The notes under the pieces were generated by a model, which was not told the DNA's origin, did not search any database, and was given only the letters and a program-made list of their open reading frames with translations. The position numbers were made by a program, and so were the translations under genes. Source: a virus. From it: a DNA stretch of 64,000 nt. This document shows, in pieces, positions 2-32,182 of the stretch; positions within the stretch are counted from its first letter, which is position 1, and each line of letters begins with the position of its first letter. Location: positions 32,001-96,000 of IMG/VR virus record IMGVR_UViG_3300042880_000288. One strand, 5' to 3'.

Positions 2-2995
2 ATGGAGACTGTAAAAGATATTATCAATAGAGAGATCTTAAGGTTCCAAGATGGTATAACTAAAACTAGCAACAATAGTAAGTATGTAATTGATGATGAT
101 TTATATACCCGTGTTACCACTGCTATTGAATCACTTAAGAAAGATGCATATAACTATAAGAATATCAATATAGTTTTAGCTGAGTTCAATAAAACAATCG
201 GCCAAGGAAAATCAGTTGATGACTTTATAGCAGCTCTTAAAACAAGATTACCTATAGGTACAGATGGTATGAGTAAGTATGTATATAAAGTACTTGCCAG
301 AAATTTAAAACAAGTTATTGAGCCAGAAGATCCTAAAGCTAAAAAATTATCTGCTGATGAACTAAAAAATTATTTAAAAGAACAGATCTCTGAACTTACA
401 TATGAAGAAAGTAGAATAGGAGGTAACTATTTAGATGCTGAAATAAGAAAATTCCTTGATGAAGGTGAAGCTCAGTTTGATGAAACTAAGATTGATAAAG
501 CTGCTTTTGATGCAATCTTTGGACCTAATTCAGTACTTGCTAAATTAAAAACTAGACAGGACAATGGTGAAATAAAAATCTATGCTAATAACATTAAGTT
601 ATTTGATAAAGATTCTAAAATTGCTGGAGAGATTGACTTATTAATAGTTGATAGAGAAGGTGCTGTGTCTATAGTAGATATTAAATCAGGTAATAAAGAT
701 AAGTGGTCTGGCTTTCATGATGCCGCTAATCCTTATTCTAAAAAGGAAACTTATTTATTACAACAAACAGCATATGCAAACATGTTTTATAACATGACCG
801 GCATTATGCCAAAAGTTTATTTATTACCTATTGAAATTGAATCAGATCCAAATGTTGACTTAGATGAAAAAACAGGTCTACCAATTGGAGGTAAAATACT
901 TACTGCAAAATATGCTACGTCTCCAGTACAGTTAGGTGAAAATTTAATTGTATTAGATCCTAATACTGCATATGGTGATGAAACAATTCAAGAAAAAGTT
1001 GATACATTGATTCCAAGAAAAGAATTTGTTCCTGCTGAACCTGCTACAACTCCATTACAAGAAGTAAGTGATGAAGAATTTCAAGATTTTGTTGATAATA
1101 GAAATGTATCACAAAGTAGACTAGATGATATCACCTATAAAATATCTAGAGGTATTGAACTTACAGAGAGAGAATTAGCAATCAGTCAAGAATTTGTAGC
1201 TGATATAAACTTTAAACTAATTCAATTAGCACAACAAGAACAAGAGAATCAAGTGGGTGATGATGCTGAATCTGCTACAGGAAAAGCTGTCTTAGATGAA
1301 GTAAGTAAAGCTCTTACTGAATCTGAAAAAGAAACCAGACAAAGAAACATTGATATATTAAATAGAAGAATAAGTATTCTAGAAAGTAGAGCTCTTGAAA
1401 ATGACAAAAGTTTAGGAGAACTTCAAGATACTCTTGGTTTTTTACAAAATATGTTAGACTCATCTGTTGAAATAGCTGGTCTTGAATTTGAAGCATTAAT
1501 GAATAGTGCTAATAGTTTGTATGAGTTAGCTAATAAATTAAAATCTGCTAAACAAGTAAAAAGGGGAGAAAAGATTAAAGCCAGAGCTGGTCAGTATGAA
1601 AAGGAAACTAAAGAGAAAGCACGTAAAATTACATTTAAAGAAGCTCAGTTTATTTTAAATACTGTTAGAAAAGTACAAGATGAAATAAGACAACTTGAAG
1701 AGATTAAAAAAGATTTGACTAATCAGATTAATTATTACAATAATCTAAAAACTGATCCATCAATGAGACTTATTAATAAGTCTGAGATTAATCAAAAGAT
1801 TGTTAAGGTTAAACGTAAGATATCTACAATTGAAAAATTAATAAATATCTTAAGAAATGCAATTAGAAAATCATTAGAATATCTTCAAGAGTATTTAAAA
1901 ATCTTTAATAAATATAATACTAAACTTGATAGATTCAGAAAAGATACCGGTTTCCAAGAATTATCAGCTGATGAAATTAGAGCATTGATTGATTCTTTAG
2001 ATCCAAATGATGTATCTACACTAGATAGATATCCTCAACTTAAAAAACAATTTGACACTCTTGTAGATAAAGTTAATAAATCCATGGATGATGTTGAGTT
2101 TACTGATGAAGTCATTCAAGTTGAAAGAGATAGATTAGAAGAATTAGTTGCTGCCCATAAAAAGTATAATGATCAATTAAGATACTTGCAAGAGTTATTA
2201 GAACCAGTTGCTGCTGATGCATTTTATGAAAGTCCTTTGTCTGATAAAAATGCACCTGATGCACCTAAACCAAAAACAGGTGGTACTCCTGCTCAACAAA
2301 GAATTCAAACTAGAATTGAAGAAACTAATAAAGAAATCCAAGATGCTAAAGATGATATGGGTGACACTGTAGGATCATTTAGTCTTAGTGATATAGAAGA
2401 AGCCCCTAGTGGACAACCTGCTGTTAAAACTGAAGGATTTAAAACTCTTTCAGATATGGTAGAAGCTGCTAATGATCTTATTGAATTAAATAAGATCTAT
2501 GATGTAATTACTGACTATACTTTAACAGTAGATGAGTTAGATCAACTATCAGATCTTATTGATCAGAGAACTGAAGCATTACAAACTAATACAGCAACTA
2601 TTACATATAATGAAAATAATATTTCAAAAGGTGATAGATTTATCGTAAAAAATGCTATATTTATTAATAAGGAAATTTTTGCAGAACCAGGAAATTCACT
2701 CTTTATAGAATCTGTTAATGAAAATGGAGTTACAGTATATAAAGTGTTGGGAGGTGAAACAGAAAATCTTACCTTTGAAGAATTAACTAATAATACAACT
2801 CTTGATAACATGTCAAACATCCCACAAGAAGAACCAGTAGTTCTATCTACAGAAGATAAAAATGTAATTAAATCTTCATTAGATGCAGCTAATTCAATTA
2901 CTACAGATGACTTAGATGCAGTTAAAGATTCAATTAAAAATAAATCAATGGATGATTTAGAGAATGATTTATTAGAAACTAATGTTTGTGAATAA
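2..2995 (+). CDS. Giant virion cargo/ejection protein 1 (C-terminal part, probably 5'-truncated by the window) with PD-(D/E)XK nuclease-like domain and long coiled coil
   Basis: 997-aa ORF open at the window edge; GEIDLLIVD...IVDIKSG...QQTAYANM matches PD-(D/E)XK motifs II/III plus the QxxxY helix; heptad-rich middle; stop overlaps the next start (TAATG). Confidence 0.75.
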   Translation: METVKDIINREILRFQDGITKTSNNSKYVIDDDLYTRVTTAIESLKKDAYNYKNINIVLAEFNKTIGQGKSVDDFIAALKTRLPIGTDGMSKYVYKVLARNLKQVIEPEDPKAKKLSADELKNYLKEQISELTYEESRIGGNYLDAEIRKFLDEGEAQFDETKIDKAAFDAIFGPNSVLAKLKTRQDNGEIKIYANNIKLFDKDSKIAGEIDLLIVDREGAVSIVDIKSGNKDKWSGFHDAANPYSKKETYLLQQTAYANMFYNMTGIMPKVYLLPIEIESDPNVDLDEKTGLPIGGKILTAKYATSPVQLGENLIVLDPNTAYGDETIQEKVDTLIPRKEFVPAEPATTPLQEVSDEEFQDFVDNRNVSQSRLDDITYKISRGIELTERELAISQEFVADINFKLIQLAQQEQENQVGDDAESATGKAVLDEVSKALTESEKETRQRNIDILNRRISILESRALENDKSLGELQDTLGFLQNMLDSSVEIAGLEFEALMNSANSLYELANKLKSAKQVKRGEKIKARAGQYEKETKEKARKITFKEAQFILNTVRKVQDEIRQLEEIKKDLTNQINYYNNLKTDPSMRLINKSEINQKIVKVKRKISTIEKLINILRNAIRKSLEYLQEYLKIFNKYNTKLDRFRKDTGFQELSADEIRALIDSLDPNDVSTLDRYPQLKKQFDTLVDKVNKSMDDVEFTDEVIQVERDRLEELVAAHKKYNDQLRYLQELLEPVAADAFYESPLSDKNAPDAPKPKTGGTPAQQRIQTRIEETNKEIQDAKDDMGDTVGSFSLSDIEEAPSGQPAVKTEGFKTLSDMVEAANDLIELNKIYDVITDYTLTVDELDQLSDLIDQRTEALQTNTATITYNENNISKGDRFIVKNAIFINKEIFAEPGNSLFIESVNENGVTVYKVLGGETENLTFEELTNNTTLDNMSNIPQEEPVVLSTEDKNVIKSSLDAANSITTDDLDAVKDSIKNKSMDDLENDLLETNVCE

Positions 2996-5900
2996 TGAAA
3001 ATTACTTGTGCTCTTAGTAAAGAACATTTACTAAAACTTGCTGCTGTTATATATAAAGATATTGAATCATACCAAGCAGAGAATAAAGCCTATGATGCCA
3101 GAGTTTTAATGAATCAGTTATATGATAAATTAAATAAAGCACAAGGTCAAGAAGTTGCCTTATCTTATATGCAACAGATGCCATTTTTAGTTGGTCAAAT
3201 TGCTTTTAAAGAAAGCACTGAGCTCATTGAAGATTTTGCTATTAATGATCTATTTAAGTTAAATAAAGAATTCAGAAATGAAGATTCTGGAGTTCAATCT
3301 TTATTAAATTTTTTTGGTAAGACAATTGATGCATCTACTCTAAAACTACTTGCAGATGCAGAGTTAAATAATCCTGTTGAGAATGATGGGCCACCAATTG
3401 CTGAAGAACCTCCAATAGAAAAATTTACTGATAAGAGATTAAAAGTTTTAGTTGACAATGCTATATCAACTACCTGGGAAGAGTTTTTAGAAATGGATCC
3501 TAATTTAAAAGTTGATGAAACAATAGAGAATGTAGATCCTGCTAAAACTACTGTATATAATACACTAGATAGACTTAGAAAGTTAACTTCTGGTGGAACT
3601 GCCTTAGATACTATAGTAATGGATGATAACAAGGTTAAACTTAGAGTTTGGTCTCTTAATGCATTTCCTCAAGACTTACTATATCAAAAGACAAAAGATC
3701 TTAAACAAAGAATAAATACATTTCAATCTGGTAAAGCTAAAGATCAAGGTGAAGTAAAACCGGTTACTGAACAATTCATGGTTGTTCTTACAAATGAAAA
3801 AGGTCAGATACTTTATTTTAATGAAGCAGGTGTTGTTACTCCTAAAGAAAATGGAGGTAAACCTGTTTATCAAATGCTAAGAGATGTTAGATTAGAGAAA
3901 GGTGGTGAGTATAGAGTTACAGATATATATGGTAGAGAGGATATGATCCTTGGTTCTGCTCAAACTGCTCAAGCAAGAGTAAAACAAATGGGTTATAAAT
4001 CCATTGATATGTTTGAAAAATCTGAAGGTGTTAAGTTCTCAGATTTTGTAAATCAAATTGAAGAAGAAAGACAAGCAAAGTTTAAAGAGTATTATGATTT
4101 TAGACAGTCCTTAATTGGAATGCCAGCTAATAGACAAATATTTTTACCACTTGTTGATGTAAGTAATGGTGTTAGAAATGGTAGAGTTAGACCAGGAACT
4201 ATGAACATCAATAACTTAAGATCCTTTACTCCTGAACAAGCTGAAGCTATACTACAATCAATTACATTATTAGATACTGATTATATTACTGAAGATAGAA
4301 CACTTAAAGCTAATACATCAGCTGTTCAAATTAATGGAGAAGTATTTGAAGTTGACAGACCAGATATATCAACTGATCTGGCTACAAAAATAGCTAAGGT
4401 GCTTACTTCTAAAGATCTAAGTATTACAAGTAAGTTGGACTTTGTTCAACAGTTTTTAGATAACGCATTAGATGAAGATGTTAGAAGACATTTTATAAAG
4501 TATGATGCTGACCAAAAAAAATTAAGATTTTTATATAGAACATATATAAATGCTCAGTTTAAAGAAATTAAAAAAACAAATCCAAAAGCTGCAAATACAT
4601 GGTTGGAAGTTGATTTAACTGGAGGCCCTGCAGCTGAAGCAAAAATTATTGAAGTTCTTTTGAAAGGTAAAGGAACTTTAAAAAAAGAGAATAATAAAAT
4701 TGTATTGGATAAGAACGGTATTCCTGAAGTGGGAAGATATTATCCAGCTAAAATTAAATACGATAAAGGTTTACTGCAAGACGGTACTTATTTTGATTAT
4801 ATAGAAGATCCAAATAAACCTGGAGAATATATGTTCAGTGTAGGTTCCTATAAAACAGGATTACTTCCAACAATGGATGCTAAAATTGTATTAGGAAAAT
4901 CTAAATCAATTCCTTTGTTTAATAGCTACATGATTTTTGCAATTCCAAATGCATTTTCAGAATCTATTGATCAAATTAAAGATGAGAATGAAATAAAAGG
5001 AGAGCCTTCAGAAATACGTAAGAAGTATAATGAGTTAGTAGATATATTAAAAAATTCTCCTGATCAAAATCCAAGTTTAAAAGCAACAGTTACTGAATTA
5101 GGAAAGATAACACAGACACCTACAGGTAATTATAGAAGTATTGATATTACAATTGAAGGTCAAGAAGGAACTTTTAGATTGTATAGAGTTGTAGATACTA
5201 GTGCTAAAGTTGGAGATGAGATAAGTTTAATACTTAGAGATATTGAAGTACAAGATGGTATGGGATATCCTAATACTATTGTAGGTGTAAGAGATTTTGA
5301 AGGTAGAAGATATGACTTTGGATTCTTACAAGACTCATTCCGTAGTAAAGAATATAATGAACCATCAAGACAACCTGTACCATTAAATACTGAAGCAATA
5401 GAGGAAGCTAAAGAAGAAGAAGAACTTGATGATATAACAGATACACAATCTGAAGTAGGTGAGAGTAAAGATATTCCAATAACTCCTATTGAACCTGGTA
5501 AAGGTAGTATAGGTAGAATACTTGATGAGGATCCGGGGTTTGTTCTTGATAGAAAAACATGGCTGAGTCAATCAGGAATTACTCAAGAGCAATTAAATAA
5601 TGCAAAAGATTGGTGGGAGAATTCATCTTCTGGTAAGCTTTTAAATAAATACATTGAACTCAGTGTAGCAGCAGATTTAGTTAACTCTGATGTATATGCA
5701 AAATTTATTGCTAAAGGAGCATGGCTTTTAGGTTATGCTGATTACAAATTACAGCCAGGTAAACTTGGAGTTATTGCTTTAAATCCCCGTAATGGTGGGA
5801 ACTATGTAGATGTTTATCATGAAGCTTGGCACGTATTTTCTCAGTTATTCATGACTAATGAACAAAGAGTTAAATTATATACAGAGTTTAGAAATTCAGA

Positions 5901-8900
5901 TCCTGCATACAAGGATATGTCCTTCTTTGAAATAGAAGAAAGACTAGCAGAAAACTTTAGAGAGTATGCAAGAAATCCTAAACCTGTTAAAAGTCAACCT
6001 GTTAGAAATACATTATTTAGAAAAATATTAAACTTCCTAAAACAATTATTCGGTAAGGTATCTCCAAAAGATATCATTGATCCAAATATAATGGAAATAG
6101 GAATGGTTAATGAATTGTTTGAAGCTCTTTATTTCAATAATGATAATGTATTAAATAAATTTTCTCCATCCGTAGATAATTTAAAATGGGATGAACTTGA
6201 TAGAGGAGTGGTTGTAAAAACAGAAGAAAAGAATTCTAAGGGTAAAAATATAAAAGTTGAAGTACTGAATGAACAAGATGGTAGAGCTCTTGCAAATACC
6301 ATTGATTCTGTACTATCTGAAATCATTGATGAAAGTTCTAAATTTTATAATAAAAAATCAGGAACTGTAAAAATCTTAACTGATTCCTATAATAAAGGTC
6401 TTGCTTATGATAAGGTTAGAAAGAAGTTCATAGAAGATATTAAACAATGGCAAAAAGAACTTCTTATTAAAGATGCTAAGTTTGATACCTATACCACTTT
6501 AGATCAATTAGATTCAAATGCCTTTGCTGTAATAAGAAGTAAAAAAGGTGATCATAAATATATTTTCTTAAGAGGTCAAGTTGAAAGTTTTAAAAATCTA
6601 ACAGCTGATACTAAACTTGGAGAAAGAGAGAAAGGAAAACTATACAAAGACAATATTGAAATTGTAGCAGATTACTTTGAACATGATTTAATTAAAGATA
6701 GAAAAGGAAGAGGAGCAAGTATAATAATTGTTGATAGTAGACAAGAAGCTGAAGATCAATTTAAAAATTATATTGAAATTGATCCTATTACTAACGAACA
6801 AAAGGCACCTTCAATACAATCAATTAAATTTAATGAAGATAGAGTTGCTGCAAGATTATTTACTCCAGAGCAACAACTTAAATTAGATAACATTAGAATC
6901 TATGAAACAGCACTTAAACACTGGGATTCTATTATTGCTCATCATGAAAATAACTCAACCTTTGATATAATTAAACAAAAATATATCTTACTTGAAGAAG
7001 ACCCAAGTACAAACTCATCATTAGATACTACAAGAGCTAATGAAACTAGGACTGGGGATAAACAAATTGGAGAGTTTACATTACAGGAAATGGCTAATAA
7101 AGAGACTGTATATATATTAAAAAGTCTCTTTAAGAAAGAAAAGAAAGGAACTGGTTATGTTAATGTATATGATAGATTTGGTAATAAACAATTAGCTGAT
7201 TTTAGAACAGTATGGAATGCCGTTGTAAGAGCCACCAATAGTGCAAAAGATCCTCAAAAAATATATGATGCACTTGTAAATGCTGCCAAGTTTTCTCCAG
7301 AACTACAACAGTTAATAGATTATAAGTTGCCTTTACCAAATCAAGTAAATCAATCTTCTTCTGAGTTTGATATTACTACTTCATTCTTTACTGATTTTAG
7401 TAGACCAAAAGTACCATATATTCAATTGTTAGCTTTTGATGATGGTGTAGAATTCTCAACTGAAGTAACAGATGCTGGTATAGATGTAAGTAAAACTTTA
7501 AAGATATTTGAGGCTAAGTTCCGGTCAGATAAAAATGATTCATACATTGAAAAAGATAATAATATATCCAGACTTAATTTAAATGCTGTATTGCAAAATT
7601 TTAGAAATAAAAATAGTGCAAATTTAATTCTTGATGAAGATAAAGCATTTAAGTTTCTTACATCCATTGGATTCTATTTTGATGATCTTACTGCTATTAA
7701 AGATGAATTAAAAGATTTCAATAATAGAAAGTATTATTATATACCAAGAATATTTGAAACAATCAAATTAGTACATGAAGCTAGTTTAGATCCTAACTTA
7801 TCTAAAGAAGGAAGAGAATTAATAAATAAGTTTAGAATGAGTCCATTGAGGGTATTAAGAAGTGGTATACCTGAAAATGTATTGGGTCAGAAAGATTCTT
7901 CTTTATACAAAAATGGGCTTTCACAAAAGACTATTGTTGATAGACTGCTTACATTACAAAGTAAATACGGTAAAACCGGATCTAATTTTAGTGTATTAAA
8001 TCCTGAAAGAAACAGAGTTAATTTACATACTGATGATAACACAGCAACAGTAATAGCTGATGCAATAAATCAAGTAAGTAATAAATCTGATATGTGGACA
8101 AAAACACAGTATAGATTATTAAATTCATTTAACCCTGCAGTTAATGCATTTACTAACAGGTCCCAAATAATGAAAGCTTTATTTGAGCCAAGTAATAAAA
8201 GAAGAACTGACAGATTTTTAGAAATTATTATGGTGGCTGGTACACAGCTTACATTAAATGATGTATTTTTATCAGGAACATCAACTACAAGTTTAGATGG
8301 CCAGGGTAAATTCTTACAAGATTTTCATACATTTCTTAAGTCAGGTTATTTAGAGTTTTTAAGACCAGGTTCTAAATCCTCTTCATTTGGATTCATCTTA
8401 CGTGGAGGTTTCCCTATTGATGTAAAAGGTATGGGTAAGAATAAAGAACAACATCTATATGCAGATATAGATGACTTCCTTACTGCAAACAATAAAGAGA
8501 CTGAAGTAATTGAAAGAATTATCCTACCATATCTTGCAGGTGAACTTGAAAGAATAAATAAATTCAAAGAAAACCCAAAAGCAAAAAATTATATAGGGTA
8601 TAATCAAAAAGTCACTGACTCAGGTAAGAGAGCTGGAGAAGAGTATGCAATATTTGAAGGTATACTTGATGATAAAACTAAATCAGACTTATTAGAAAAA
8701 ATAAACAACTCTGGTATAGATTTAATAAACTATCTTAAAAATGATCCTGATTTAAAATCTAGTTTGATTAAACAAATCAAAGGTTATTTTACTACTAGAA
8801 GTACTGATGTTTATAACAGATTAAATGAAGGTAAATATGTAGATCCTAAACTATATAATAAAGTACCTGGTGATTTGACTAAGTCAGAAAAAGAAAAAGT

Positions 8901-11900
8901 TCTTGCAAAGACTTTCATGTATAATTATTGGATTCATAGTGTTGAGACTCAGATATTATTCTTAGGTGACATATCTCAATATAATCATCTTAAAGAAGAA
9001 TTACATAAGAGAACTTCTGGTTTGATTTCAAATGGTCCAAGATTTAGGACTGATACTGCTGCTCAATTATTTATAAATAATAAAGCTTTATGGGCAAAAA
9101 GTACTTATGCATCTACTTTACCTGCTGAGTATCAAAACTTTGAATACAATGGTACATTTAATACCGCCATCATGGAGGATATTACTAGAGATAGTGAATA
9201 CTTAGATATAATTAAAAAAGGTCTTGAAAAAGATTATGCAAAAAGATATGCTTTACTTCCAACAGCAGAAGCTAAAAAACTTATAGAAGAAAGAGTAGCA
9301 AAAGAAATTGCTAAATATACGGCAGATGAAATCAAAGAAGGTGATGGTCAAGGTTATATTACTGTTGATGCATATAGAACATTAAAAAAATTACAAAACC
9401 GTTGGTCAGATCAGCAAGAAGTTCTATATCAAAAAGTAATTAAAGGAAGTGAGATTACACCAGCAGAATATATTGAACTTTTTCCTCCATATAAATTACA
9501 ATACTTTGGTCCATTAGTAGCACAAACAAAAGATTTTGCTAATGGTACAGTTTTACCAGTTACAGCTTTCCATAAGTTTGCCTTGGTACCTTTAATTCCA
9601 TCATGGGTAAAGGGTTCTGATCTTGAAGTATTGCATAAAGAAATGCTAAGGAATAACATTCAATATGCAACATTTGGTAGTGGATCTAAGGTAGGTGCAG
9701 TAACATCTGATGGTGAATTAGATAAAATTTATGAGCCCGGTTCAGATAATAAAAAATTAAAAAGTAAAATAAACTTTACTAAAAATACTATTAATGTTGA
9801 GTACTTAAAAGAAGTAACCAGTGTACCTAGTAAATTAAAAGGTAAAGTTATATTCTCAACTCAGTTAAGAAAATTAATTCTTGAAGGATTATTTATTAAA
9901 GGAGAACTTGTAAATGGTGCTAACAAAGATATAGTAGAAGGATACACTTCATTGGTTGACTCTTATACTAAATTATTAAAAGAAGAATTATTAACTGAAA
10001 TTGGTTATACAAAAGAGAATGGAGTATATGTTGGTAAGCCTGCTAAATTATTAAAATTAATCAAAGACAATTTAGCTAAAAAAGATTACCCAAGTCACCT
10101 TCTTGATGCATTAAAAACAAATCCTGATGGTTCACTTAAGTATGACTTATCAAATTTTATTGATGCTCAAACTATAGAAAGAACTGTATTATCAATTGCT
10201 GAAAATAGATTTGTTAAACAAAAACTAAAAGGAGAAGCTTTAGTTCAAGTAGCAAGTTCCATGACAAATGGTTTATGGACTGCAGGAAATAAATTTAAAG
10301 CAGGATCTAAGGAAGATGTATTAAAGTATATGGGTACTAATAATCTACCTTTCTATTATCCTGGTGAGGATGGTAAAACAAATGCAATGAAAGTTGCTAT
10401 TGCTTTACAAGGAGACTTCTTCAATTTATTAAACTTAAATGACTTAGATGGTCAACCAATTAAGACAAGAGAAAGACTTAATGAACTGATCAAACAAGAT
10501 GAATGGTTAAATAAAGATAACAACCGTAAAGCTATTACCATGACTGCTGTTAGGATTCCTGTACAAGGACTTAACTCTATGGAGTTTATGGAAGTTTGGG
10601 AGTTCTTGGATCCTTCTGCAAGTAATATTATTATTCCTCCTACAGAACTAGTAGCAAAATCAGGGGGTGATTATGACGTTGATAAGCTTACTACATTCAT
10701 GCCTAACATAGATAAAGATGGTAATGTTTATACTTCAGATAAAAATGCAAAAGCTTTACTTGATTCTATTAATGAAGCAGACAGTAAAGATAAAATGGCC
10801 TTAATCAAGCAAGCTAAAAAAGTAATGGAAAATGACTTGATCACTAGTATCAGATCTATTCTTGAATTACCAGAAAATTATGCAACTCTTGTAAGACCAA
10901 ATGATACTTACATGCTTAAAGATATTGCTGATGAATTAGCTGATGTTGTAGTTGATTATGATAAATTCCAAACAGTAAATAGAAAATTCAAAGAATATAG
11001 AATTGTAAAAGGTAAAAAAGCAATTAGTCCTACTACTACATTAGAACCTTTATATAATATTGATAAGTTTAATGGTAACATGATTGGTAAAGCAGTACTT
11101 GGTATTGGTGCCAATGAGAATGCTTTTAGTCCTTTATTAAATTCTATTGGTGCTAAAATGCCATTGACTTATCAGGAAAGTGAATTTGATCCAAAAATCA
11201 ATAAGTATAAAGATATAAAGGATGGTGAAACTTATAGAACAAGATTACTATTACGTCATAATAAAAATGCTGATGGTACAATTTCATTAGCAGATGTAAA
11301 CTCTGTTGATGCTGTAAATAAAATAGCTGACTTGTTTTCACAAGGTATGAATGGATGGGTTGACGTTGAAAAAGATCAGTGGATCTTTTATATTCAAGGT
11401 AACTTAGAAATATCTCCTGTATTACTGTATTTATTAAAAGCTGGTGTACCTGTGAGAGATGCTGTTATGTTTGTGTCTACTCCTCTTATTAGAGAGTATG
11501 CAAATAAACAAAGACTATTGAAAAGTCCATATGCAACTCTAATGGGTATTGCACCTACTGAACCTCAGTTTGCTCAATATAATGCAGCTAATGAAGTATT
11601 AAGTCCTGCTATAGATGCTTACTTGAAAAGAACTATTGATAAAGCTGTATTCTCAGGTTATAGTTTTGATACTGCATCAATAGCTTACTATGGTTTAGGT
11701 CCTAATGGTAGAAAACAATTAATGACTCAAGAGTTCAAAGGAACTGATGATCAAGTGATTAAAGATCAAATTAATGACTTCTTACAATATGTTGATTCAA
11801 ATGATGTCATGAGAATCAATTTTTATCAGCAAGCAGATAGAAGACAAAATAATAAAGTATACAGTAAACCAAGAGTTTCAAATAAAGAAATTTACAATTC

Positions 11901-14900
11901 AGCTGTACAATTAAGTGATAATAATTTAGATAGCTTTGGTAATTTTGATAAAGCTAAAATTGAACAATTAGTTAAGTCTAAAAATGATACTGATAAATAT
12001 TCTGATTTTTCAATGGCTGCATTCTTGCATTTTATTGAGATTGAAAAATATTTAAAGGGTCTAGGTAATGTAAAAAGATTATCTAAACCAGATACTCAAA
12101 CATTTAAAACTATACAAGAGGTTTTATTAAGAGATCTAAATATTGCATACTTAAATGATTACAGTAAAGTTGATAAAACTACTTTTGATAGATTAAGAAA
12201 TGACAGCATTCTTGCTGCTCTTGCAGATAAAGATATAATAACTCAAGTAATAAGTCCATTGTTTTCATTAAGAAATAGCAAGCAAGTATTAGATCAGATT
12301 GTTTCTACTATCAATACTAAAACAGAAGCTCTCAAAGAAAGATATGGTGGTCTTGGAGCAGACAACATTAGTAGGTTTATTGAAGAGTATAAAAATGCCA
12401 TCAATACATTTATACTACAAAACTTCTTAAGTAACAATATAAACTCTAATGGAGAGATTGTTTTAGTGCCGGATACTTACAAAGGTTTTGAAGTTGTTAC
12501 TAATGAAAATCTTGAAACAGATGTTGAAGTAACTGAGAAGGATGGTAAGAAACTTATTAGAGTTAATCCAAAAAGAATTGAAGCTGACTTTAAAAATAAA
12601 AACTACTTAGTAACCAGTAGCTCTAACAACTCTTACAAGTCAAGAGGCCTTGAAGCATTCCAAGTTGGTGATGATGTATTTGAATCTAAGTCAAGTTACT
12701 ATAGATATGTTATAGAAAGAGAGTATTTAAAAAATAAAGGATTTACTAAAGAAGAACTTAACAGTATTGCTTTATTGAATACTTATAATCCATCTGTAAT
12801 ATTGAGAAGAGGTACATATTCTTTTACAGATCAGTTATTAGAATCTATTCAACAGTTTCCAGAACTTTCTAAATATCCTGTAGTAAACCAATTAAGTTTA
12901 TATGCTTTTTCTAATGAATTTAATGTATTAACTTTAAATGATAAAGGTTTACTTGATGGTGCTCAAGCTGATATATATGCTCAGAATATTAGAGAACTAG
13001 CTAATCCAAAAATCCAAAAGATTGCAAACACTAAGGATAATGAAAAAATAAGTAGATTATTTTACATGCTTCAATTAATGGCAACTTACCAACATGGTTC
13101 AGGTCCTTCAATTGATGGCTTTAATGAAATACTACCTCAAGATTCATACTTAAGTGTTATGAATAATGCTAGTCCTTTATTCACTAAATACTATTTTAAT
13201 GAAGATACTCTTGAATATATTGTTGATGTTCTTACAGCAGATAAATTAAGAATTAAGAACTATACAAGCATGCCAACAAGTAATAATACATTTGTTATTG
13301 AGGCTAAAGCTGAAGGTGCTCAACCATCTATTAAACCAACAACTCCTACTTTAACTGTAAATGATCCTAAAGATTTTACAAATCATTCGGGTGGTGCTGC
13401 TTTATCTGATACTGAATGGGATCAAATAGGTAGAGAGTTTGGGGTAACTAATCATAAACATTATAGAGAGCCTTTAGATTATGTAGATACAAAAGGTGAA
13501 GCTGCTAAAGGAAGTAAAACATTAGATTCTAAAAAATTACAAGCAGCTGGTATTGAACCTACTCATATTAGTCAAAAAGACTATAATGAAGGTGCACAAA
13601 AAGCTACAAAAGCTTTTAGAATGATGTATACTGATTCTGAAAATAAATCAGTAAGAAGTGCCTATATTATTCGTAACTGGTTACAAGTTAAAAATGCTGA
13701 TGCCATATTTGCATTAGGTACTATAAAACAACCTGGTGAAAATGCATCTGATAAAGCTGGTGAAACAAGAATAGCTGCTGTCCCTATTGTTAAAGGTGGT
13801 ACAGGATATGCTGTTCAAATGGCTATTAATGAAGGTAAACCTGTTTATGTATTTGATGGTACTAAAGAAGGATGGTATAAGTATGATTATTCAATTAAAA
13901 ATTTTGTAAAAACTGATACACCAACTCTTACTAAAAACTTTGCAGGTATAGGAAGTAGAACACTAAGTACAAAAGAAGTAATAGACAAATCATTACAAGC
14001 CATCAGAGATGTATATACTCAAACATTTGGGGCTAAACAAAAATCAGATGGTACAACAGTTAAATACAAGTACTATGGTGCTATGTATGATATTGTTGTA
14101 GAGAATGGACTTGGTATAGATGTATTAAACTATAAAGGGAAACCGGCTAAAAAAGCAATTTTATTAGCTTACTTTAATCAAAATCCAAATATAGATCCTC
14201 AAAGTACTGGACCTGATCCAATAGTTTTAAGTGATGAAGAAATAAATAATGATGATACAGGTAACTCAGATCCAACAACAGGTAATACATTTACTTTTGC
14301 TGATGGTTATGAGATTGAAACTCCTTTTAAATTAAACAAAGAACAAGAGGCAGCTCTGTTAAAACTTGAAGAATTCTATAATGATCCTAAAAAATTCAAT
14401 AATGAAATTACATTGATTGGATATGCAGGAACTGGTAAAACTTCAATCATGGCTCTCTTTGATAAATGGTTGAATAAAGGATGGTTTGGACCTAATATAG
14501 TATATACTGCACCAACTCATAGAGCAAATGCTGTTACTAAACTTAAGAATCCTAAAATTAAAGTATTAACTCTCCATTCCTTATTTGGATTTGGTCCTGA
14601 AGTAGACTTTGAAGGAATGGATTATGACGTAAGAGATTTACAATTTGCTAATAATAGAAATGGAAAAATTGATAAAGGTCAAATACTTATTGTAGATGAA
14701 TCTTCTATGATTACTGATGAATTATATGATTTCTTAGGTCAGCAAAAAGATAAGTATGATCTTAAAGTTATATACATGGGTGATCCAGGACAGTTAGGTC
14801 CTGTGCAAAATAAAGGAGGCTTGACATCAAAAGTATTTTCTAATCCCACATCTAGTATTACTTTAACTAAAGTAGAAAGAACAGGAGATAATCCTATACT

Positions 14901-17214
14901 AAAAGAATCAACTGCACTAAGATCTGGAGGTTCTTTATCATATCAGTCTGCAGAAATTAATGGAAAAGGTGTTGAATATATAAATAGTACAGCTAGAGAA
15001 AATCAAATACTTGCTGAAAATCTTAATGAAATGAGAGACTCAGAAAACTATTTGTATTTTAGAATGTTAGCTGCAACAAATCCTGAAGTAGCTAGATTAA
15101 ATAAAGTAGCGAGAGAAATATTATATCCTCAAACCTATCAAGAACAATTAGTAGTTGGTGAAATTCTTATGGGGTATGATAATTTTGGTAGAGATTATAA
15201 AACAGGCCAGTCTTTATTATATAACTCTGGAGATTATATGATTACTCAACTTAAGAAAGATAATAAAGAAGTCTATATAACTAATTATGAAAAACAAGGA
15301 GACAAATTTGTAAATATCGGTTTTGAAGAATTGAATTTTACTGGATACAATGTAACTCTTAAAAATCTATTGGATCCAGAAGCAAAACCATTTGAAGTCT
15401 TTATACCAGATATTGTAGGTAATGATGATGCATCTACTAAACTTGCAGATTCTATTCATAAGTTAAACTATATGGGTAAGATTGCTGGTTATGGACAAGA
15501 TAAAGCTAAATATTTTGAAGCAGCTTCTAATTTATCTAAACAAGTATTATTTATGAATGACGTAAAAGGTTTAACTGATAAGTCTAAAATTAAAAAAGCA
15601 ATAGACTATGGTTATGCTCATACAATTCATAAATCTCAAGGTGGTACTTATACTAAAGTATTTATAAATGATCCTAGTATAACAGGATTAGTAGGATATA
15701 TTAAAGATAGAAGAAGACTTACCGATGATCAAGCACAAACTGTTGAAAGACAATTAAAGTATGTTGCTGTATCAAGAGCTACTGACTATGTATATATTTC
15801 AACTAATAGAAGTGCTGCAGGAAAACCTACTAGTTTTGATGATCCGGCCTCTGGAGATTTTGATACTGTAGGAACATTTAATATCAATGATTTAAATCCA
15901 CCATCTAATCCACCAATATCAGGAGAAAGAAAACCTATTGAACCAATAAATGCTCAAGAAATTGAAGATGGTTTAATCTTACAAAAAGGTGTTCTTACTA
16001 AAGAAGAACAAAAACAATTCTTTCAATTTGGTAAAACAGTTCTAGAAAAGAATGGTTATAATCCTTTTGCACAATATGTTATGGCCTCTGCTGGTAAAAT
16101 GGAATGGAGTCCTGAATTTGTAGTTGATAAAAATGGAAAAGGTGTAGATAGACCAGGAAATTATAATACTGGAATCATTCAAATTAAGAAAAACCTAGGA
16201 GGAAGAGACAGTAAAGAAAAAAGATGGAATTATAATTACTACCTCACTAATTTTGATGGTACTACTATAGCTCCAATACCAAATAATATTATAAGTATAC
16301 TAGAAAAAGTTACAGGTCAAGATATGTCTGACTATGATACAGTTCTAATTAACTTATATCCATTAGGTAGAACACTTGGTTGGCATCAAGATATAACTGA
16401 AGATTATAGAAACATGGATAGAGATATTATATCTGTATCTATTGGAGCAGATGCTGATTTTACTTACAATAAAAGAGATAAATTAAGTTATGCTCCTGCA
16501 GCAGATAGTATTCCTGATGGTGTTGTTAATTTAAAGAGTGGGGATGTTATGAGTTTTGGTGGTAAATCTAGACTTGTTCAACATACTGTAACTAATGTAA
16601 CAGGTCAGACAGATTTAGGAACCATAAATCTTGCTAACTCTAATGTAAATAAATATTTTAATGGTGGTTTAAATTTATCTAACTGGAGAATGAACTTTAC
16701 ATTTAGAGTAGCTGATTCTAAAAATAATAATGGTAAAAGAGGATTAGTTTCTACAGTAATTCCAGGTATTAAAAAGTTTGAAGGACAAATGACCTATGCT
16801 TATGGTCAAAATAAAAGAGCTGGTGTAATAGCTAATACAACATTTGATGCCATATTAACGGGTGAAAGAACAGCTACTACAAGATATGAAACTTCAGATA
16901 ATATTGAATACTGGAAAAAAGCCAAAGTTGGAGATATTATTACATGGAAATCTGATGATGGCCGTACTGTAGATGTAGAAGTAACAAGACCACTACATAA
17001 ATTAGTGGGGTCAGGTAAAACACCAACTGATTGGAGCCAACTTGAAGGCTGGTCAATATCTTATTTTAATGAAAAGGTTAGACCTAAACTTGATAAAGCT
17101 TGGCAAATTGAGTTTAAATTACCTGCACCGCCTGCTGCTGAAACAGAAATTAATGATAACTTTATTGATCCTTTTGAAGATGATCAAGAAAATAATTGTG
17201 CATATCCTTTTTAA
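2995..17214 (+). CDS. Giant virion-packaged DNA-dependent RNA polymerase polyprotein (crAss-like two-barrel RNAP) with zincin motif, cpYpsA-like SLOG, RecD/Dda-like SF1B helicase, AlkB 2OG-Fe(II) dioxygenase and ASCH-like domains
   Basis: HEAWH (5818-5832); EGDGQGY, GSKVG, RIPVQG and GGDYDVDKL (DxDxD at 10669-10683); NHSGGA...GGTGYAVQMA..GKPVYVFD...FAGIGSR; GYAGTGKT, DESSM, GDPGQL, HKSQG, YVAVSRA; INLY..LGWHQD...SVSIG...HTV...RMNFTFR; FDAILTGERTATTR. Confidence 0.88.
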   Translation: MKITCALSKEHLLKLAAVIYKDIESYQAENKAYDARVLMNQLYDKLNKAQGQEVALSYMQQMPFLVGQIAFKESTELIEDFAINDLFKLNKEFRNEDSGVQSLLNFFGKTIDASTLKLLADAELNNPVENDGPPIAEEPPIEKFTDKRLKVLVDNAISTTWEEFLEMDPNLKVDETIENVDPAKTTVYNTLDRLRKLTSGGTALDTIVMDDNKVKLRVWSLNAFPQDLLYQKTKDLKQRINTFQSGKAKDQGEVKPVTEQFMVVLTNEKGQILYFNEAGVVTPKENGGKPVYQMLRDVRLEKGGEYRVTDIYGREDMILGSAQTAQARVKQMGYKSIDMFEKSEGVKFSDFVNQIEEERQAKFKEYYDFRQSLIGMPANRQIFLPLVDVSNGVRNGRVRPGTMNINNLRSFTPEQAEAILQSITLLDTDYITEDRTLKANTSAVQINGEVFEVDRPDISTDLATKIAKVLTSKDLSITSKLDFVQQFLDNALDEDVRRHFIKYDADQKKLRFLYRTYINAQFKEIKKTNPKAANTWLEVDLTGGPAAEAKIIEVLLKGKGTLKKENNKIVLDKNGIPEVGRYYPAKIKYDKGLLQDGTYFDYIEDPNKPGEYMFSVGSYKTGLLPTMDAKIVLGKSKSIPLFNSYMIFAIPNAFSESIDQIKDENEIKGEPSEIRKKYNELVDILKNSPDQNPSLKATVTELGKITQTPTGNYRSIDITIEGQEGTFRLYRVVDTSAKVGDEISLILRDIEVQDGMGYPNTIVGVRDFEGRRYDFGFLQDSFRSKEYNEPSRQPVPLNTEAIEEAKEEEELDDITDTQSEVGESKDIPITPIEPGKGSIGRILDEDPGFVLDRKTWLSQSGITQEQLNNAKDWWENSSSGKLLNKYIELSVAADLVNSDVYAKFIAKGAWLLGYADYKLQPGKLGVIALNPRNGGNYVDVYHEAWHVFSQLFMTNEQRVKLYTEFRNSDPAYKDMSFFEIEERLAENFREYARNPKPVKSQPVRNTLFRKILNFLKQLFGKVSPKDIIDPNIMEIGMVNELFEALYFNNDNVLNKFSPSVDNLKWDELDRGVVVKTEEKNSKGKNIKVEVLNEQDGRALANTIDSVLSEIIDESSKFYNKKSGTVKILTDSYNKGLAYDKVRKKFIEDIKQWQKELLIKDAKFDTYTTLDQLDSNAFAVIRSKKGDHKYIFLRGQVESFKNLTADTKLGEREKGKLYKDNIEIVADYFEHDLIKDRKGRGASIIIVDSRQEAEDQFKNYIEIDPITNEQKAPSIQSIKFNEDRVAARLFTPEQQLKLDNIRIYETALKHWDSIIAHHENNSTFDIIKQKYILLEEDPSTNSSLDTTRANETRTGDKQIGEFTLQEMANKETVYILKSLFKKEKKGTGYVNVYDRFGNKQLADFRTVWNAVVRATNSAKDPQKIYDALVNAAKFSPELQQLIDYKLPLPNQVNQSSSEFDITTSFFTDFSRPKVPYIQLLAFDDGVEFSTEVTDAGIDVSKTLKIFEAKFRSDKNDSYIEKDNNISRLNLNAVLQNFRNKNSANLILDEDKAFKFLTSIGFYFDDLTAIKDELKDFNNRKYYYIPRIFETIKLVHEASLDPNLSKEGRELINKFRMSPLRVLRSGIPENVLGQKDSSLYKNGLSQKTIVDRLLTLQSKYGKTGSNFSVLNPERNRVNLHTDDNTATVIADAINQVSNKSDMWTKTQYRLLNSFNPAVNAFTNRSQIMKALFEPSNKRRTDRFLEIIMVAGTQLTLNDVFLSGTSTTSLDGQGKFLQDFHTFLKSGYLEFLRPGSKSSSFGFILRGGFPIDVKGMGKNKEQHLYADIDDFLTANNKETEVIERIILPYLAGELERINKFKENPKAKNYIGYNQKVTDSGKRAGEEYAIFEGILDDKTKSDLLEKINNSGIDLINYLKNDPDLKSSLIKQIKGYFTTRSTDVYNRLNEGKYVDPKLYNKVPGDLTKSEKEKVLAKTFMYNYWIHSVETQILFLGDISQYNHLKEELHKRTSGLISNGPRFRTDTAAQLFINNKALWAKSTYASTLPAEYQNFEYNGTFNTAIMEDITRDSEYLDIIKKGLEKDYAKRYALLPTAEAKKLIEERVAKEIAKYTADEIKEGDGQGYITVDAYRTLKKLQNRWSDQQEVLYQKVIKGSEITPAEYIELFPPYKLQYFGPLVAQTKDFANGTVLPVTAFHKFALVPLIPSWVKGSDLEVLHKEMLRNNIQYATFGSGSKVGAVTSDGELDKIYEPGSDNKKLKSKINFTKNTINVEYLKEVTSVPSKLKGKVIFSTQLRKLILEGLFIKGELVNGANKDIVEGYTSLVDSYTKLLKEELLTEIGYTKENGVYVGKPAKLLKLIKDNLAKKDYPSHLLDALKTNPDGSLKYDLSNFIDAQTIERTVLSIAENRFVKQKLKGEALVQVASSMTNGLWTAGNKFKAGSKEDVLKYMGTNNLPFYYPGEDGKTNAMKVAIALQGDFFNLLNLNDLDGQPIKTRERLNELIKQDEWLNKDNNRKAITMTAVRIPVQGLNSMEFMEVWEFLDPSASNIIIPPTELVAKSGGDYDVDKLTTFMPNIDKDGNVYTSDKNAKALLDSINEADSKDKMALIKQAKKVMENDLITSIRSILELPENYATLVRPNDTYMLKDIADELADVVVDYDKFQTVNRKFKEYRIVKGKKAISPTTTLEPLYNIDKFNGNMIGKAVLGIGANENAFSPLLNSIGAKMPLTYQESEFDPKINKYKDIKDGETYRTRLLLRHNKNADGTISLADVNSVDAVNKIADLFSQGMNGWVDVEKDQWIFYIQGNLEISPVLLYLLKAGVPVRDAVMFVSTPLIREYANKQRLLKSPYATLMGIAPTEPQFAQYNAANEVLSPAIDAYLKRTIDKAVFSGYSFDTASIAYYGLGPNGRKQLMTQEFKGTDDQVIKDQINDFLQYVDSNDVMRINFYQQADRRQNNKVYSKPRVSNKEIYNSAVQLSDNNLDSFGNFDKAKIEQLVKSKNDTDKYSDFSMAAFLHFIEIEKYLKGLGNVKRLSKPDTQTFKTIQEVLLRDLNIAYLNDYSKVDKTTFDRLRNDSILAALADKDIITQVISPLFSLRNSKQVLDQIVSTINTKTEALKERYGGLGADNISRFIEEYKNAINTFILQNFLSNNINSNGEIVLVPDTYKGFEVVTNENLETDVEVTEKDGKKLIRVNPKRIEADFKNKNYLVTSSSNNSYKSRGLEAFQVGDDVFESKSSYYRYVIEREYLKNKGFTKEELNSIALLNTYNPSVILRRGTYSFTDQLLESIQQFPELSKYPVVNQLSLYAFSNEFNVLTLNDKGLLDGAQADIYAQNIRELANPKIQKIANTKDNEKISRLFYMLQLMATYQHGSGPSIDGFNEILPQDSYLSVMNNASPLFTKYYFNEDTLEYIVDVLTADKLRIKNYTSMPTSNNTFVIEAKAEGAQPSIKPTTPTLTVNDPKDFTNHSGGAALSDTEWDQIGREFGVTNHKHYREPLDYVDTKGEAAKGSKTLDSKKLQAAGIEPTHISQKDYNEGAQKATKAFRMMYTDSENKSVRSAYIIRNWLQVKNADAIFALGTIKQPGENASDKAGETRIAAVPIVKGGTGYAVQMAINEGKPVYVFDGTKEGWYKYDYSIKNFVKTDTPTLTKNFAGIGSRTLSTKEVIDKSLQAIRDVYTQTFGAKQKSDGTTVKYKYYGAMYDIVVENGLGIDVLNYKGKPAKKAILLAYFNQNPNIDPQSTGPDPIVLSDEEINNDDTGNSDPTTGNTFTFADGYEIETPFKLNKEQEAALLKLEEFYNDPKKFNNEITLIGYAGTGKTSIMALFDKWLNKGWFGPNIVYTAPTHRANAVTKLKNPKIKVLTLHSLFGFGPEVDFEGMDYDVRDLQFANNRNGKIDKGQILIVDESSMITDELYDFLGQQKDKYDLKVIYMGDPGQLGPVQNKGGLTSKVFSNPTSSITLTKVERTGDNPILKESTALRSGGSLSYQSAEINGKGVEYINSTARENQILAENLNEMRDSENYLYFRMLAATNPEVARLNKVAREILYPQTYQEQLVVGEILMGYDNFGRDYKTGQSLLYNSGDYMITQLKKDNKEVYITNYEKQGDKFVNIGFEELNFTGYNVTLKNLLDPEAKPFEVFIPDIVGNDDASTKLADSIHKLNYMGKIAGYGQDKAKYFEAASNLSKQVLFMNDVKGLTDKSKIKKAIDYGYAHTIHKSQGGTYTKVFINDPSITGLVGYIKDRRRLTDDQAQTVERQLKYVAVSRATDYVYISTNRSAAGKPTSFDDPASGDFDTVGTFNINDLNPPSNPPISGERKPIEPINAQEIEDGLILQKGVLTKEEQKQFFQFGKTVLEKNGYNPFAQYVMASAGKMEWSPEFVVDKNGKGVDRPGNYNTGIIQIKKNLGGRDSKEKRWNYNYYLTNFDGTTIAPIPNNIISILEKVTGQDMSDYDTVLINLYPLGRTLGWHQDITEDYRNMDRDIISVSIGADADFTYNKRDKLSYAPAADSIPDGVVNLKSGDVMSFGGKSRLVQHTVTNVTGQTDLGTINLANSNVNKYFNGGLNLSNWRMNFTFRVADSKNNNGKRGLVSTVIPGIKKFEGQMTYAYGQNKRAGVIANTTFDAILTGERTATTRYETSDNIEYWKKAKVGDIITWKSDDGRTVDVEVTRPLHKLVGSGKTPTDWSQLEGWSISYFNEKVRPKLDKAWQIEFKLPAPPAAETEINDNFIDPFEDDQENNCAYPF

Positions 17215-17223
17215 TTAAATAAA

Positions 17224-20200
17224 ATGGCAAAAAATTGTAGAGATACTGAAAAATTTAAAACAGCTGAGGCATCTACTAAAGCTTGGTTTAAAACAAATGG
17301 TTTATTAGATAGATTTTTAAGAATCCCTGAAGGTAAATTAGTAAAGTTTAGAGAGGCTAATGCAGCTTTATCTAAAAAAGCTAATAATGAAATGAATATT
17401 CCAGGTAGACTCTTTACAGAACTTGAAGGAGGTACAAGAGCTTTACCAAACATAATGATGTTCCATAAGATAGATGCTTTTAAAGGTAAATTCTATCCGG
17501 GAAATAACTATTTAAAACCAGAATATTTACCAAGAGAAACTAGACCACTCTATGAAACTGTTGCCATTGATGAAGAAGCAGTTAGTGCTGAAAGAGCAGA
17601 CAAGTTATTTAATGCATTAGGTCAAAAATATGAGGCAGCCTTTGGTATACCATATGTTATGGTATCAGAATATGAGGCTAATATGATATTACAAAATAGC
17701 AATACTCCTTATAACAATCAACCAGGTTTCTTTTATGGAGACAAGGTTTATTTTGTTAAAGGTAAAGCTACTATGAACACAATGGTTCATGAATTCTCAC
17801 ATCCCCTTATAAAAGCTATTGCATTAAATAACCCTAAACTATTTAACAATCTATATGAAACTTTACTAAAAAGTGATACAGGTCAAGATATAGTGAATCA
17901 ATTAGTAGCTGAAGGTAAATTACAACCTGAGACTTCAAGATTTAAAGAAGAAGCCTTGGTTAGAGCAATGGAAAAAGATGCTGCTGAGAAGTTATCTAAT
18001 GTAGTTAAAAGTGACAGTGCCTTTAAGGAGTTCATAAACATGCTAATGTATGCTATTAAAAAGATACTTGCTGGCATGACTAAGATGGTTAGTCCTAAAA
18101 AATTAACTACTACAACTACACTTTCTGAACTAACTGATATGATGTTATTTGAAGACTTTCAAATGGAATCTATTAAGTTTGATAATACTGATTTTGCAGA
18201 CTTTGCATCTGAGTATGATGCTTTACTTGGTGCTTTACAAAACTCCACTGCTAAACAATTACAAGAAGCTATCAACAGAGCCTATACAGAAAGTACTTTC
18301 CAGTTAACCCAGTTAAGAAATGCTCCTTGGAAACTAAAAGAAGATTTAAGTAGAATTGGTGGAGAAAAAGTATTGAGATCTATCAGAGATCATTTGAAAA
18401 GATATCAAACTGTTTCTGCAGACTTATCTGATATTTCAGTAGATGAAATTTTAGATGCCATGGAATCTCAGCAAGAAGAGTTTAGAATAAGAGGTATTGC
18501 ACTTATTAATTCTATAAATGAAGCTAAGATATTCTCAGAAAAAATAGAACAGATATTGCAAGAAATGCAGACTAATAAGAGACATCTTACTGCTGCTGGT
18601 ATAGCCAAAGTACAATATTTTAGTGAGTATATTCAGAGGCAGAAAGAGTTTCTTACTGATGTAGAAAAAATATTAGGCCGGGGTAGGGACAATGAGTTTG
18701 TAAAAGAACTTAGATCAACTATCAATATTATCAATGATGCTTCTGACTTAATCAAAGAACTGAAGACAGATGTAGTCACAGAAATATTTGTGGATAATAC
18801 TGAGTTCATGCAAGAAGAAATGGATAGAAAGATTTCTGAAAGAATTAGGCAGATAGCTAAGGCAGATAATCTATCAGAAGCCCTGACAGAAGAACTTGTA
18901 AAAGAAATTACCAGTCTACCTAATGTAAAAAAATATGACATTGACTTAAAGAAATATCCTCTTAATCCTAAGAGAGCTCAAGTATTGGCTAATGAATTAA
19001 AAGAATACTTCTTTAAAAGATTAAATAGAGATGCTATTGAAAAATATTTAAGTGGTGAAACTGAAGACCTAACATTCTTTCAGGCTTGGTTAAACCCATA
19101 TCTATCTATGGATGATCCTTTAGGATCTTTTGTAAGATATATGAAGACTAAATTATCTGAGGCTGAGAACAAAAGTTTATCTCAAGCAAATGACATTGCT
19201 AATACTCTAGTTCCTTTATTAGATGCTGTAGGTTATAGTCCAAATAATACAGGCCAACTAGGTAAGATGTTATTACAAACAGATAAGACTGGTTACACTG
19301 ATTCTAATGGTGAGTTTGTTGAGTTTGAATTATATACTTTCTTAGATCAATTTATTAATTGGAGAAGAGATAAAGCTGAATTACAACACAACTTTGATAA
19401 AGCAAGAGAGAGTGGTGATAAAGAAAAGATTAAATCTGCACTACAAGCACTATGGGAGTTTGAAGAAAAGTACATGCACCGTAAGTATAAACAAGAGTAC
19501 TATGACCTTCAAAATATTTGGAAACAAGATAACACAGTTAGAAACCCAATCACAGGATTAGATGTTAGTGTTTCTGCTTCACTATCTACAGAAGCATTCT
19601 TAGAAAGACAATCAGGTTTGGATAAACTCAATCAATACAAACACGAGGCTTATACTGAAATGGATGACCTTTATGAGTTTACTGAATCAGATGCTGCAAA
19701 GGCAGAGTATGAGCAATTATATCAGATAACTAATGCAGATGGTACAAATAAAACCGGTGATGAACTTCTAAAAACTCTTGTAAGAAGAAAGTATAGATAT
19801 GAATCTAAAAGATTTTATGAGTATAGTTTGAATGAAGAAAGAGTTCAAAGAGACTACGACAATTATGTTCAGGAGTTAGCAGTTAGAGGTATAACCAAAG
19901 ATGCTAAACCTGAAGAGTGGAAAGCAGAAATGAAGAAGTTTATTGATAAAAACTTCCGTATTGCATATTCTGAAGATTATTATAGATCTAAGGAAGATCT
20001 TTTTACACGACTTACAGATATAACTAATAAGTATAAATCCCCCCTGGCAGATAAAATGAGAGATCTTTATCTAGAAAGATGGAGACTTACAAATGCTATT
20101 ACAGATAAGAATGGTACAACTAATGCCTTACAATATACTAATGCTGTATTAGAAAAAATTAAAGATCTAGAAGAAGAGATTGTTAAGCTTCAAGATCAGT

Positions 20201-27603: not shown

Positions 27604-27951
27604 TTAAGCTTGCTCAGCCATAAACTTCTTATAATCAAACTTTGCATTAACTGCAAACATTTTGATTAATTCTTCCATAGCCTCAGTATCTTCAATATAA
27701 AATTCTTGAAACACTTCTACTTTGTGTCTCTCCTGTTTCATACCTTTTGTACCAGCTATTGCCTGTCCATACTCATCTAGTTTGGGCAGCATATGCAATG
27801 TAGTTTTTTTAATCTTAGAGATTATTACAAATACTTTTGTTCCTGGATCAAAAATACATTCCACATATGGGCATGTATCATTAATAGGAATCATTCTAAA
27901 AGTTTGTTTTTCTTGCCAAGTTGCTTGGACAAGCATCATTGATTGTGTCAT
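27604..27951 (-). CDS. Hypothetical protein
   Basis: 115-aa ORF collinear with its neighbours. Confidence 0.65.
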   Translation of the reverse strand: MTQSMMLVQATWQEKQTFRMIPINDTCPYVECIFDPGTKVFVIISKIKKTTLHMLPKLDEYGQAIAGTKGMKQERHKVEVFQEFYIEDTEAMEELIKMFAVNAKFDYKKFMAEQA

Positions 27952-27977
27952 TTGTTGGTTTTTTAATTAAATACAAA

Positions 27978-28544: not shown

Positions 28545-28548
28545 AAAC

Positions 28549-30907: not shown

Positions 30908-30918
30908 TGTCTTAAGTT

Positions 30919-30944
30919 TAAAAAGGGGAGTATTACCTCCCCTT
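30919..30944 (-). terminator. Intrinsic terminator
   Basis: AAGGGGAG/CTCCCCTT stem followed by a T run. Confidence 0.7.
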
Positions 30945-32172: not shown

Positions 32173-32182
32173 ACTCTTTTTT

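Follow-up and report, generated by a model that had tools for sequence, protein, structure and literature searches.

Facing terminal cysteines as candidate head-to-tail disulfide tethers of three giant RNA polymerase-module proteins in a putative distant crAss-like phage

The closest described counterparts of the locus analysed here are the virion RNA polymerase (RNAP) modules of two cultured crAss-like phages, phi14:2 and crAss001. In phi14:2 the products of g067, g066 and g065 (gp67, gp66 and gp65) are annotated as virion proteins from tandem mass spectrometry (MS/MS) proteomics, and g066 is a structurally characterised virion RNAP. In crAss001 the proteins gp47, gp50 and gp49 have been detected in virions by mass spectrometry (Bayfield 2023, PMC10172136). 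How a megadalton protein cargo leaves the crassvirus capsid through a channel of less than 50 Å is an open question (PMC10172136, PMC13434306), and giant ejected phage proteins such as the virion RNAP (vRNAP) of N4 are thought to traverse the tail unfolded (PMC13434306). A further precedent is cyanopodophage A4, in which cryo-electron microscopy shows a gp26 cleft occupied by the C-terminal helix of gp27 and, inside the capsid, a Cys1715-Cys5 disulfide that joins the two proteins (PNAS 2025, PMC12002296). The present study concerns three giant proteins, designated P1, P2 and P3, that are encoded at the beginning of a 64,000-nucleotide stretch (the window, G000:C1:32001-96000) of the 120,701-bp virus record IMGVR_UViG_3300042880_000288, which has a G+C content of 31%.

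The genes for P1 and P3 adjoin that of P2 on either side, such that three giant genes stand in series (Table 1). Together the three proteins contain only 4 cysteines in 9120 amino acids (aa), all of them within five residues of facing termini. Since the other open reading frames (ORFs) of the same genome carry 1.57% Cys, about 144 would be expected in the trio; were four positions placed at random, the chance of one falling into each of the four facing end windows would be about 1e-11. These four positions had been named in a preliminary description of the DNA, made by manual scan, and they are borne out by translation of all three frames. A computational count revealed no internal cysteine that the scan had missed in P1, P2 or P3: each C-terminal cysteine indeed faces an N-terminal cysteine of the next protein, and the last protein has none at its C terminus. 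The length of 997 aa originally given for the first protein requires correction, as that ORF is cut by the start of the window. The full P1 ORF occupies genome positions 27652-34995 (2447 aa), its start lying 4349 nucleotides upstream of the window, and the N-terminal region thus restored is likewise without cysteine.

Table 1. Features of the three-gene locus (positions counted from the first letter of the window).
Feature	Position	Strand	Remarks
P1	2..2995	+	C-terminal 997 codons of a 2447-aa protein with a PD-(D/E)XK nuclease domain (Pfam)
P1 Cys2446	2987..2989	+	penultimate residue, tail ...ETNVCE; sole Cys of P1; invariant in alignment A1
P2	2995..17214	+	4739 aa; contains the putative virion RNAP; start overlaps the P1 stop (TAATG)
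P2 Cys5	3007..3009	+	MKITCAL; invariant in alignment A2; present in homologues
P2 HEAWH (HExxH) motif	5818..5832	+	residues 942-946; invariant in relatives
P2 DYDVD motif	10669..10683	+	residues 2559-2563; DFDxD-type catalytic motif of crAss-like virion RNAPs; D-D-D invariant in alignment A2
P2 RecD-like helicase module (AAA_30, UvrD_C_2)	14332..15798	+	residues 3780-4268; Pfam, PDB sequence match
P2 AlkB-like 2OG-Fe(II) oxygenase module	16189..16707	+	residues 4399-4571; Pfam, PDB sequence match
P2 Cys4735	17197..17199	+	fifth residue from the end, ...ENNCAYPF; invariant in alignment A2
P3	17224..23028	+	1934 aa; zincin-like HEFSH motif at residue 189; LysM domain at 1620-1662
P3 Cys5	17236..17238	+	MAKNC; sole Cys of P3

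The terminal cysteines are conserved in the homologues of P1, P2 and P3 alike, as the chain of cargo proteins envisaged in the preliminary description would have it. Among 90 P1 relatives (24-100% identity), 86 possess a single cysteine, located in the last 1-6 residues, and an N-terminal cysteine occurs in none (0/90). The P2 relatives comprise 120 listed proteins and 136 further representatives clustered at 50% identity. Exactly two cysteines, one at positions 4-6 and the other in the last 1-9 residues, are found in 106 of the 120, despite their differing C-terminal enzyme modules. The C-terminal cysteine itself is present in 119 of the 120 and in 132 of the 136 further representatives, 85 of which display the pure two-cysteine pattern. 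A single cysteine also characterises the P3 family (90 of 104 relatives), situated at positions 2-7 in 89 cases; in the remaining one, whose start was called too far upstream, it lies at position 10. Two of the P3 exceptions (P0011 and P0040) are truncated gene calls, since both begin at the internal HEFSH motif; the P3 relative P0086 lacks cysteine altogether, and the P2 relative P0157 lacks the C-terminal one. The residues that flank the terminal cysteines vary widely among relatives, with no fixed flanking motif and with end offsets of 1-9 and 2-7, and the tails beside the cysteines consist of conserved amphipathic or acidic segments.

The pairing of the cysteines was then assessed junction by junction within the same genome, using a profile scan of IMG/VR that yielded 80 loci (71 non-redundant). 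In the non-redundant set both cysteines are present at the P1|P2 junction in 57 of 57 cases and at the junction between P2 and the next protein in 68 of 68. At the boundary between P1 and the protein preceding it (P0, a Cys-free protein of about 1000 aa), neither cysteine occurs (48 of 48). Internal cysteines in the scanned loci amount to 21 in 495,447 residues. One facing pair per junction, in the order P1-P2-P3, was kept in every related locus examined.

The cysteines covary with gene architecture, in that the junction pair is missing from fusions and an inserted protein is equipped with a cysteine at either end. In the 4470-aa P1-P2 fusion P0385, 89 members of the P1 family align to residues 6-1024 and P2 aligns to residues 1185-4470; the sole cysteine stands at the very C terminus, as the final residue. 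Flavobacterium phage Fpv1 encodes a 4401-aa protein, gp33, with an RNAP core at about 2458-3753 and a single cysteine at position -2, and the next protein, gp34, has Cys3. In p-crAssphage, gp44, whose annotation describes a fusion of RNAP with a further subunit, starts with MSC and is without a C-terminal cysteine, and gp45 ends in ...SCM. The RNAP is also fused to a further subunit at crAss002 gp32|gp33, where one pair is kept and the C-terminal cysteine is absent, given a start of gp33 at an internal MSC. This MSC, at residues 33-35 of gp33 (L009:17088), resembles the start of p-crAssphage gp44, and the annotated start of gp33 is probably 32 codons too early. Conversely, three loci (L069, L084 and L086) contain an extra protein of 583-591 aa between P2 and P3, the only cysteines of which are Cys4 and Cys(-3); this inserted protein (L069:17764-19512 in the first of them) had no Pfam match. 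Modules of about 600 aa appear, moreover, to cross the P2|P3 junction while the cysteines remain at the ends, as residues 3416-4030 of P0327, at the C-terminal end of a P2 protein, are 58% identical to residues 96-706 of P0046, at the N-terminal end of a P3 protein. The fused polyproteins of p-crAssphage (gp44) and Fpv1 (gp33) carry the same modules in the same order as the locus described here, joined there by a peptide bond, whereas the join here would be post-translational and reversible. Fused RNAP polyproteins, which have no cysteine at the fused junction, may thus be regarded as the gene-level equivalent of the disulfide link proposed here.

Like the modules of phi14:2 and crAss001, the locus encodes three giant proteins, of which the central one contains the RNAP with a DxDxD catalytic motif and the last one a zincin motif, and the terminal-cysteine pattern is identical. 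In phi14:2 the cysteine of g067 is the last residue, g066 contains Cys3 and Cys2179 (of 2180 residues), and g065 contains Cys3. In crAss001 the corresponding residues are a cysteine at -3 in gp47, Cys5 and a cysteine at -9 in gp50 (which has one internal cysteine as well), and Cys5 in gp49; gp47 keeps its C-terminal cysteine although its gene and those of gp50 and gp49 lie on different strands. Unlike these likenesses in layout, the sequences themselves are very distant: the RNAP core alone aligns, at 22-24% identity, and P2 is about twice as long as its counterparts, with helicase and AlkB-like modules that set it apart. Disulfides do form in virions of this order, since the crAss001 atlas shows them in tail hubs, ring proteins and gp57 (PMC10172136).

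The pre-ejectosome pair of the unrelated cyanopodophage A4 is among the closest known parallels. Our check of the genome (Anabaena phage A-4L) showed that gp27 (1717 aa) has Cys1715 as its sole cysteine, that gp26 (1114 aa) has only Cys5, and that gp29 has none. As in P1-P3, a lone cysteine at the extreme C terminus is followed by one at about position 5 of the next protein, in proteins otherwise free of cysteine. In contrast to P1-P3, A4 has one pair and no chain, and no RNA polymerase is involved. No sequence homology of P1-P3 to A4 gp27 or gp26 was detectable (blastp E > 0.1), and the resemblance would be functional and not familial. The A4 paper (PMC12002296) neither generalises its disulfide nor ties it to cysteine depletion.

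The distribution of the cysteines, their conservation and their covariation with fusion and insertion are direct observations, and comparison among relatives strongly backs the head-to-tail pairing that the preliminary description had put forward. As to their role, the sequences and the analogy to A4 point to head-to-tail disulfide tethers that would join P1, P2 and P3, a reading to which we assign a probability of roughly 70%. At each junction an amphipathic or acidic tail leads to one cysteine within the final 1-9 residues of the upstream protein, and its presumed partner lies at position 2-7 of the protein that follows. The tail would dock on that protein's N-terminal region, and in the oxidising medium outside the two thiols would form an inter-protein disulfide, the product being a linear P1-S-S-P2-S-S-P3 concatenate of about 9100 residues. 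Because each link leaves a stub of only a few residues, such a concatenate could pass the narrow tail channel as one thread; the reducing cytoplasm of the host would then free the parts. For this lineage we infer the disulfide itself, as well as the threading as one chain and the release by reduction. A more ambitious version, for which we would offer slightly less than even odds, extends to Crassvirales generally: the RNAP cargo, of about 1 MDa in the present phage, would form a reversible "pseudo-polyprotein" that is disulfide-concatenated in the capsid, drawn down the tail as a continuous unfolded thread following the order of the genes, and split by host reduction, and the redox clasp would have evolved independently in A4-type podophages on a Cys-free background.

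Modelling of the terminal pairs, as proposed in the preliminary description, was carried out for P1|P2, from single sequences (P2 residues 1-800 and the C-terminal 120 residues of P1), with three controls. The predicted complex reached a score of 0.40 (best control, 0.00), the runs agreed in at least 51% of contacts, and the predicted local distance difference test (pLDDT) of the partner was at least 61. The score mark is reached by 51 of 78 solved complexes and by 2 of 108 mismatched pairs; at 0.60 or below lie 5 of those 78 and all 4 passing mismatches. As a minor point, the prediction thus lends weak backing to docking of the P1 tail on P2 by its score and supplies no support at the level of an interface.

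Several points weigh against disulfide tethers. In the complex model the P2 part is poorly folded (pLDDT 39-40) and no interface is given. In one locus (L052, 772-7976) P1 is split into proteins of 1613 and 789 aa with an ATGA overlap, and no cysteine pair marks the new junction; this split P1 is the only such exception seen and may represent an assembly error. IAS virus and p-crAssphage retain several internal cysteines, and at IAS gp055|gp056 the N-terminal partner cysteine is missing, in a record that has ambiguous bases. Finally, the particles assemble in a cytoplasm that is reducing, and gut anaerobes account for many of the hosts; formation of the disulfide might therefore be a late event or require contact with air.

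The reducing conditions of assembly would equally suit a different interpretation, in which non-covalent contacts or a bridging metal ion hold the facing termini together, the cysteines serving as contact or ligand residues and any disulfide being incidental oxidation. The conserved amphipathic or acidic tails could bind unaided, and exactly four cysteines would fit one tetrahedral site. Nevertheless, systems with 2, 4 and 6 terminal cysteines exist, always two per junction; a two-cysteine metal site would need more ligands, yet histidine is depleted in these proteins (0.2-0.9%), and the A4 map shows the corresponding signature as a disulfide. We therefore consider this interpretation rather unlikely. 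The cysteine-based metal signal that the preliminary description had entertained beside the disulfides is disfavoured, in the form of one shared site, by relatives with only two terminal cysteines. A single intermolecular Zn(Cys)4 clasp of the zinc-hook type was accordingly rejected, as there are two terminal cysteines in Fpv1, P0385, p-crAssphage and crAss002, and six in L069, L084 and L086. The cysteines might instead tie each cargo protein to partners other than its neighbour in the series, whether the portal, tail or capsid, a different cargo protein or another copy of itself, since tail and portal-vertex proteins of crAss001 use disulfides, and two upstream cargo-like proteins bear a lone C-terminal cysteine with no obvious partner: p-crAssphage gp47 (L007; 857 aa, Cys at -2) and crAss002 gp30 (L009; 557 aa, Cys at -8), each followed by a protein without an N-terminal cysteine. 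Outside links would not, however, predict that fusions lose both cysteines and inserts have both; the number and side of the cysteines track the junctions, P1 never having an N-terminal and the last protein never a C-terminal one, all of which makes such partners less probable still than non-covalent or metal-bridged docking.

A role of the terminal cysteines as nucleophiles or recognition residues in maturation cleavage or ligation would accord with the processing that has been proposed for RNAP polyproteins and with the HExxH motifs in P2 and P3. It is improbable on the evidence: a Pfam scan found no intein, Hint or sortase-type domain, the variable end offsets and the lack of a fixed flanking motif speak against a recognised site, and the fused forms have no cysteine at the would-be cleavage site. 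At the level of nucleic acid, all four cysteine codons are TGT and three of them lie within TTGTG, as might be expected if each junction carried a promoter, an element for translational coupling or some other DNA or RNA signal, with the cysteine codons as by-products. Such a junction signal is excluded as the cause because crAss001 gp47, with its C-terminal cysteine, lies opposite gp50 and gp49; it would also leave some 140 missing internal cysteines unexplained and is at odds with the wide variation of the flanking residues, which leaves it a negligible probability. A lipoprotein lipobox was rejected as well, for a cysteine at position 2-7 leaves no room for a signal peptide.

The idea that internal cysteines were purged for the sake of the chain stands as regards the purge itself. 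Its chain-specific cause does not, since other such proteins are also Cys-free: gp50, gp51 and gp52 of N4 (L091) have no cysteine in 3500 + 644 + 150 = 4294 aa, gp15 and gp16 of T7 (L093) have none in 2065 aa, and the same holds for upstream proteins of the present genome. T7 gp14 has a single cysteine, at position 2. P1-P3 thus resemble N4 gp50-52 and the T7 internal core proteins as giant ejected proteins devoid of internal cysteine, and they differ from N4 in that its vRNAP belongs to another RNAP family, consists of one chain and lacks terminal cysteines. The purge looks like a general trait of tail-ejected proteins, to which the terminal pairs would be a special addition. The upstream block in question (G000:C1:9626-27645, L002) includes proteins of 1498, 1370 and 1067 aa with 0 Cys and one of 1251 aa with 2 Cys, the 1498-aa protein showing a transglycosylase or baseplate-hub-like domain at 150-307. 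This Cys-poor block probably codes for further ejected or tail-channel proteins. A 773-aa protein within the block has 10 cysteines, clustered at 389-495.

Other residues are also unevenly represented. Histidine is low in the three giants (0.2, 0.72 and 0.88% across window positions 2-23028, versus about 2% in many other ORFs), and the portion of P1 within the window contains very little tryptophan.

Full-text literature searches returned no description of a terminal-cysteine rule for Crassvirales, and these cysteines are not mentioned in the crAss001 atlas (PMC10172136), the phi14:2 RNAP preprint (10.1101/2020.03.07.982082) or the 2026 N4 paper (PMC13434306). A rule that can be read from sequence would tell which proteins join, in what order and at which residues, and would make the question of cargo exit accessible to simple experiments with phi14:2, crAss001 and other cultured phages. 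It would account for the free interchange of fused and split versions of the modules, and it suggests a redox switch that releases the polymerase in the host. In annotation, lone terminal cysteine pairs could serve to flag members of an ejected chain and to correct gene starts, as in the example of crAss002 gp33. Close to the RNAP module of p-crAssphage there are a thioredoxin and a truncated thioredoxin (gp39, L007:30978-31256, and gp37); to tie them to the redox chemistry of the cargo would be pure speculation.

The identity of the locus was assessed by several comparisons. Residues 1974-2861 of P2 align to RNAP-containing proteins of crAss-like phages, including phi14:2 g066 (tblastn E 8e-7 for residues 1974-2309), and the DYDVD motif belongs to the DFDxD type described as the RNAP catalytic motif of crAss-like phages (10.1101/2020.03.07.982082). 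P1 and P3 show weak matches to phi14:2 g067 and g065, obtained through family members with phmmer; a phmmer search of classified Crassvirales proteins against the P1 and P3 families gave results mostly too distant to inform. A megablast search of the region against the phage collection returned no nucleotide match, a tblastn search of P3 against the same collection returned none, and a search for related loci using P3 alone yielded nothing. In the PDB sequence search P3 had no match, and P2 matched through its helicase and AlkB modules only. The genome also encodes a terminase, a portal and a major head protein (PHROG matches). It reads as a putative distant crAss-like phage, and P1, P2 and P3 are presumably packaged and ejected proteins of an RNAP module, their presence in the virion and their delivery being deduced by homology.

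The C-terminal part of P2 varies in content among relatives, where a kinase, PF18760, YbiA/PF08719, PF12694 or PF25176 takes the place of the helicase and AlkB-like modules; this part of the protein looks like a swappable effector bay.

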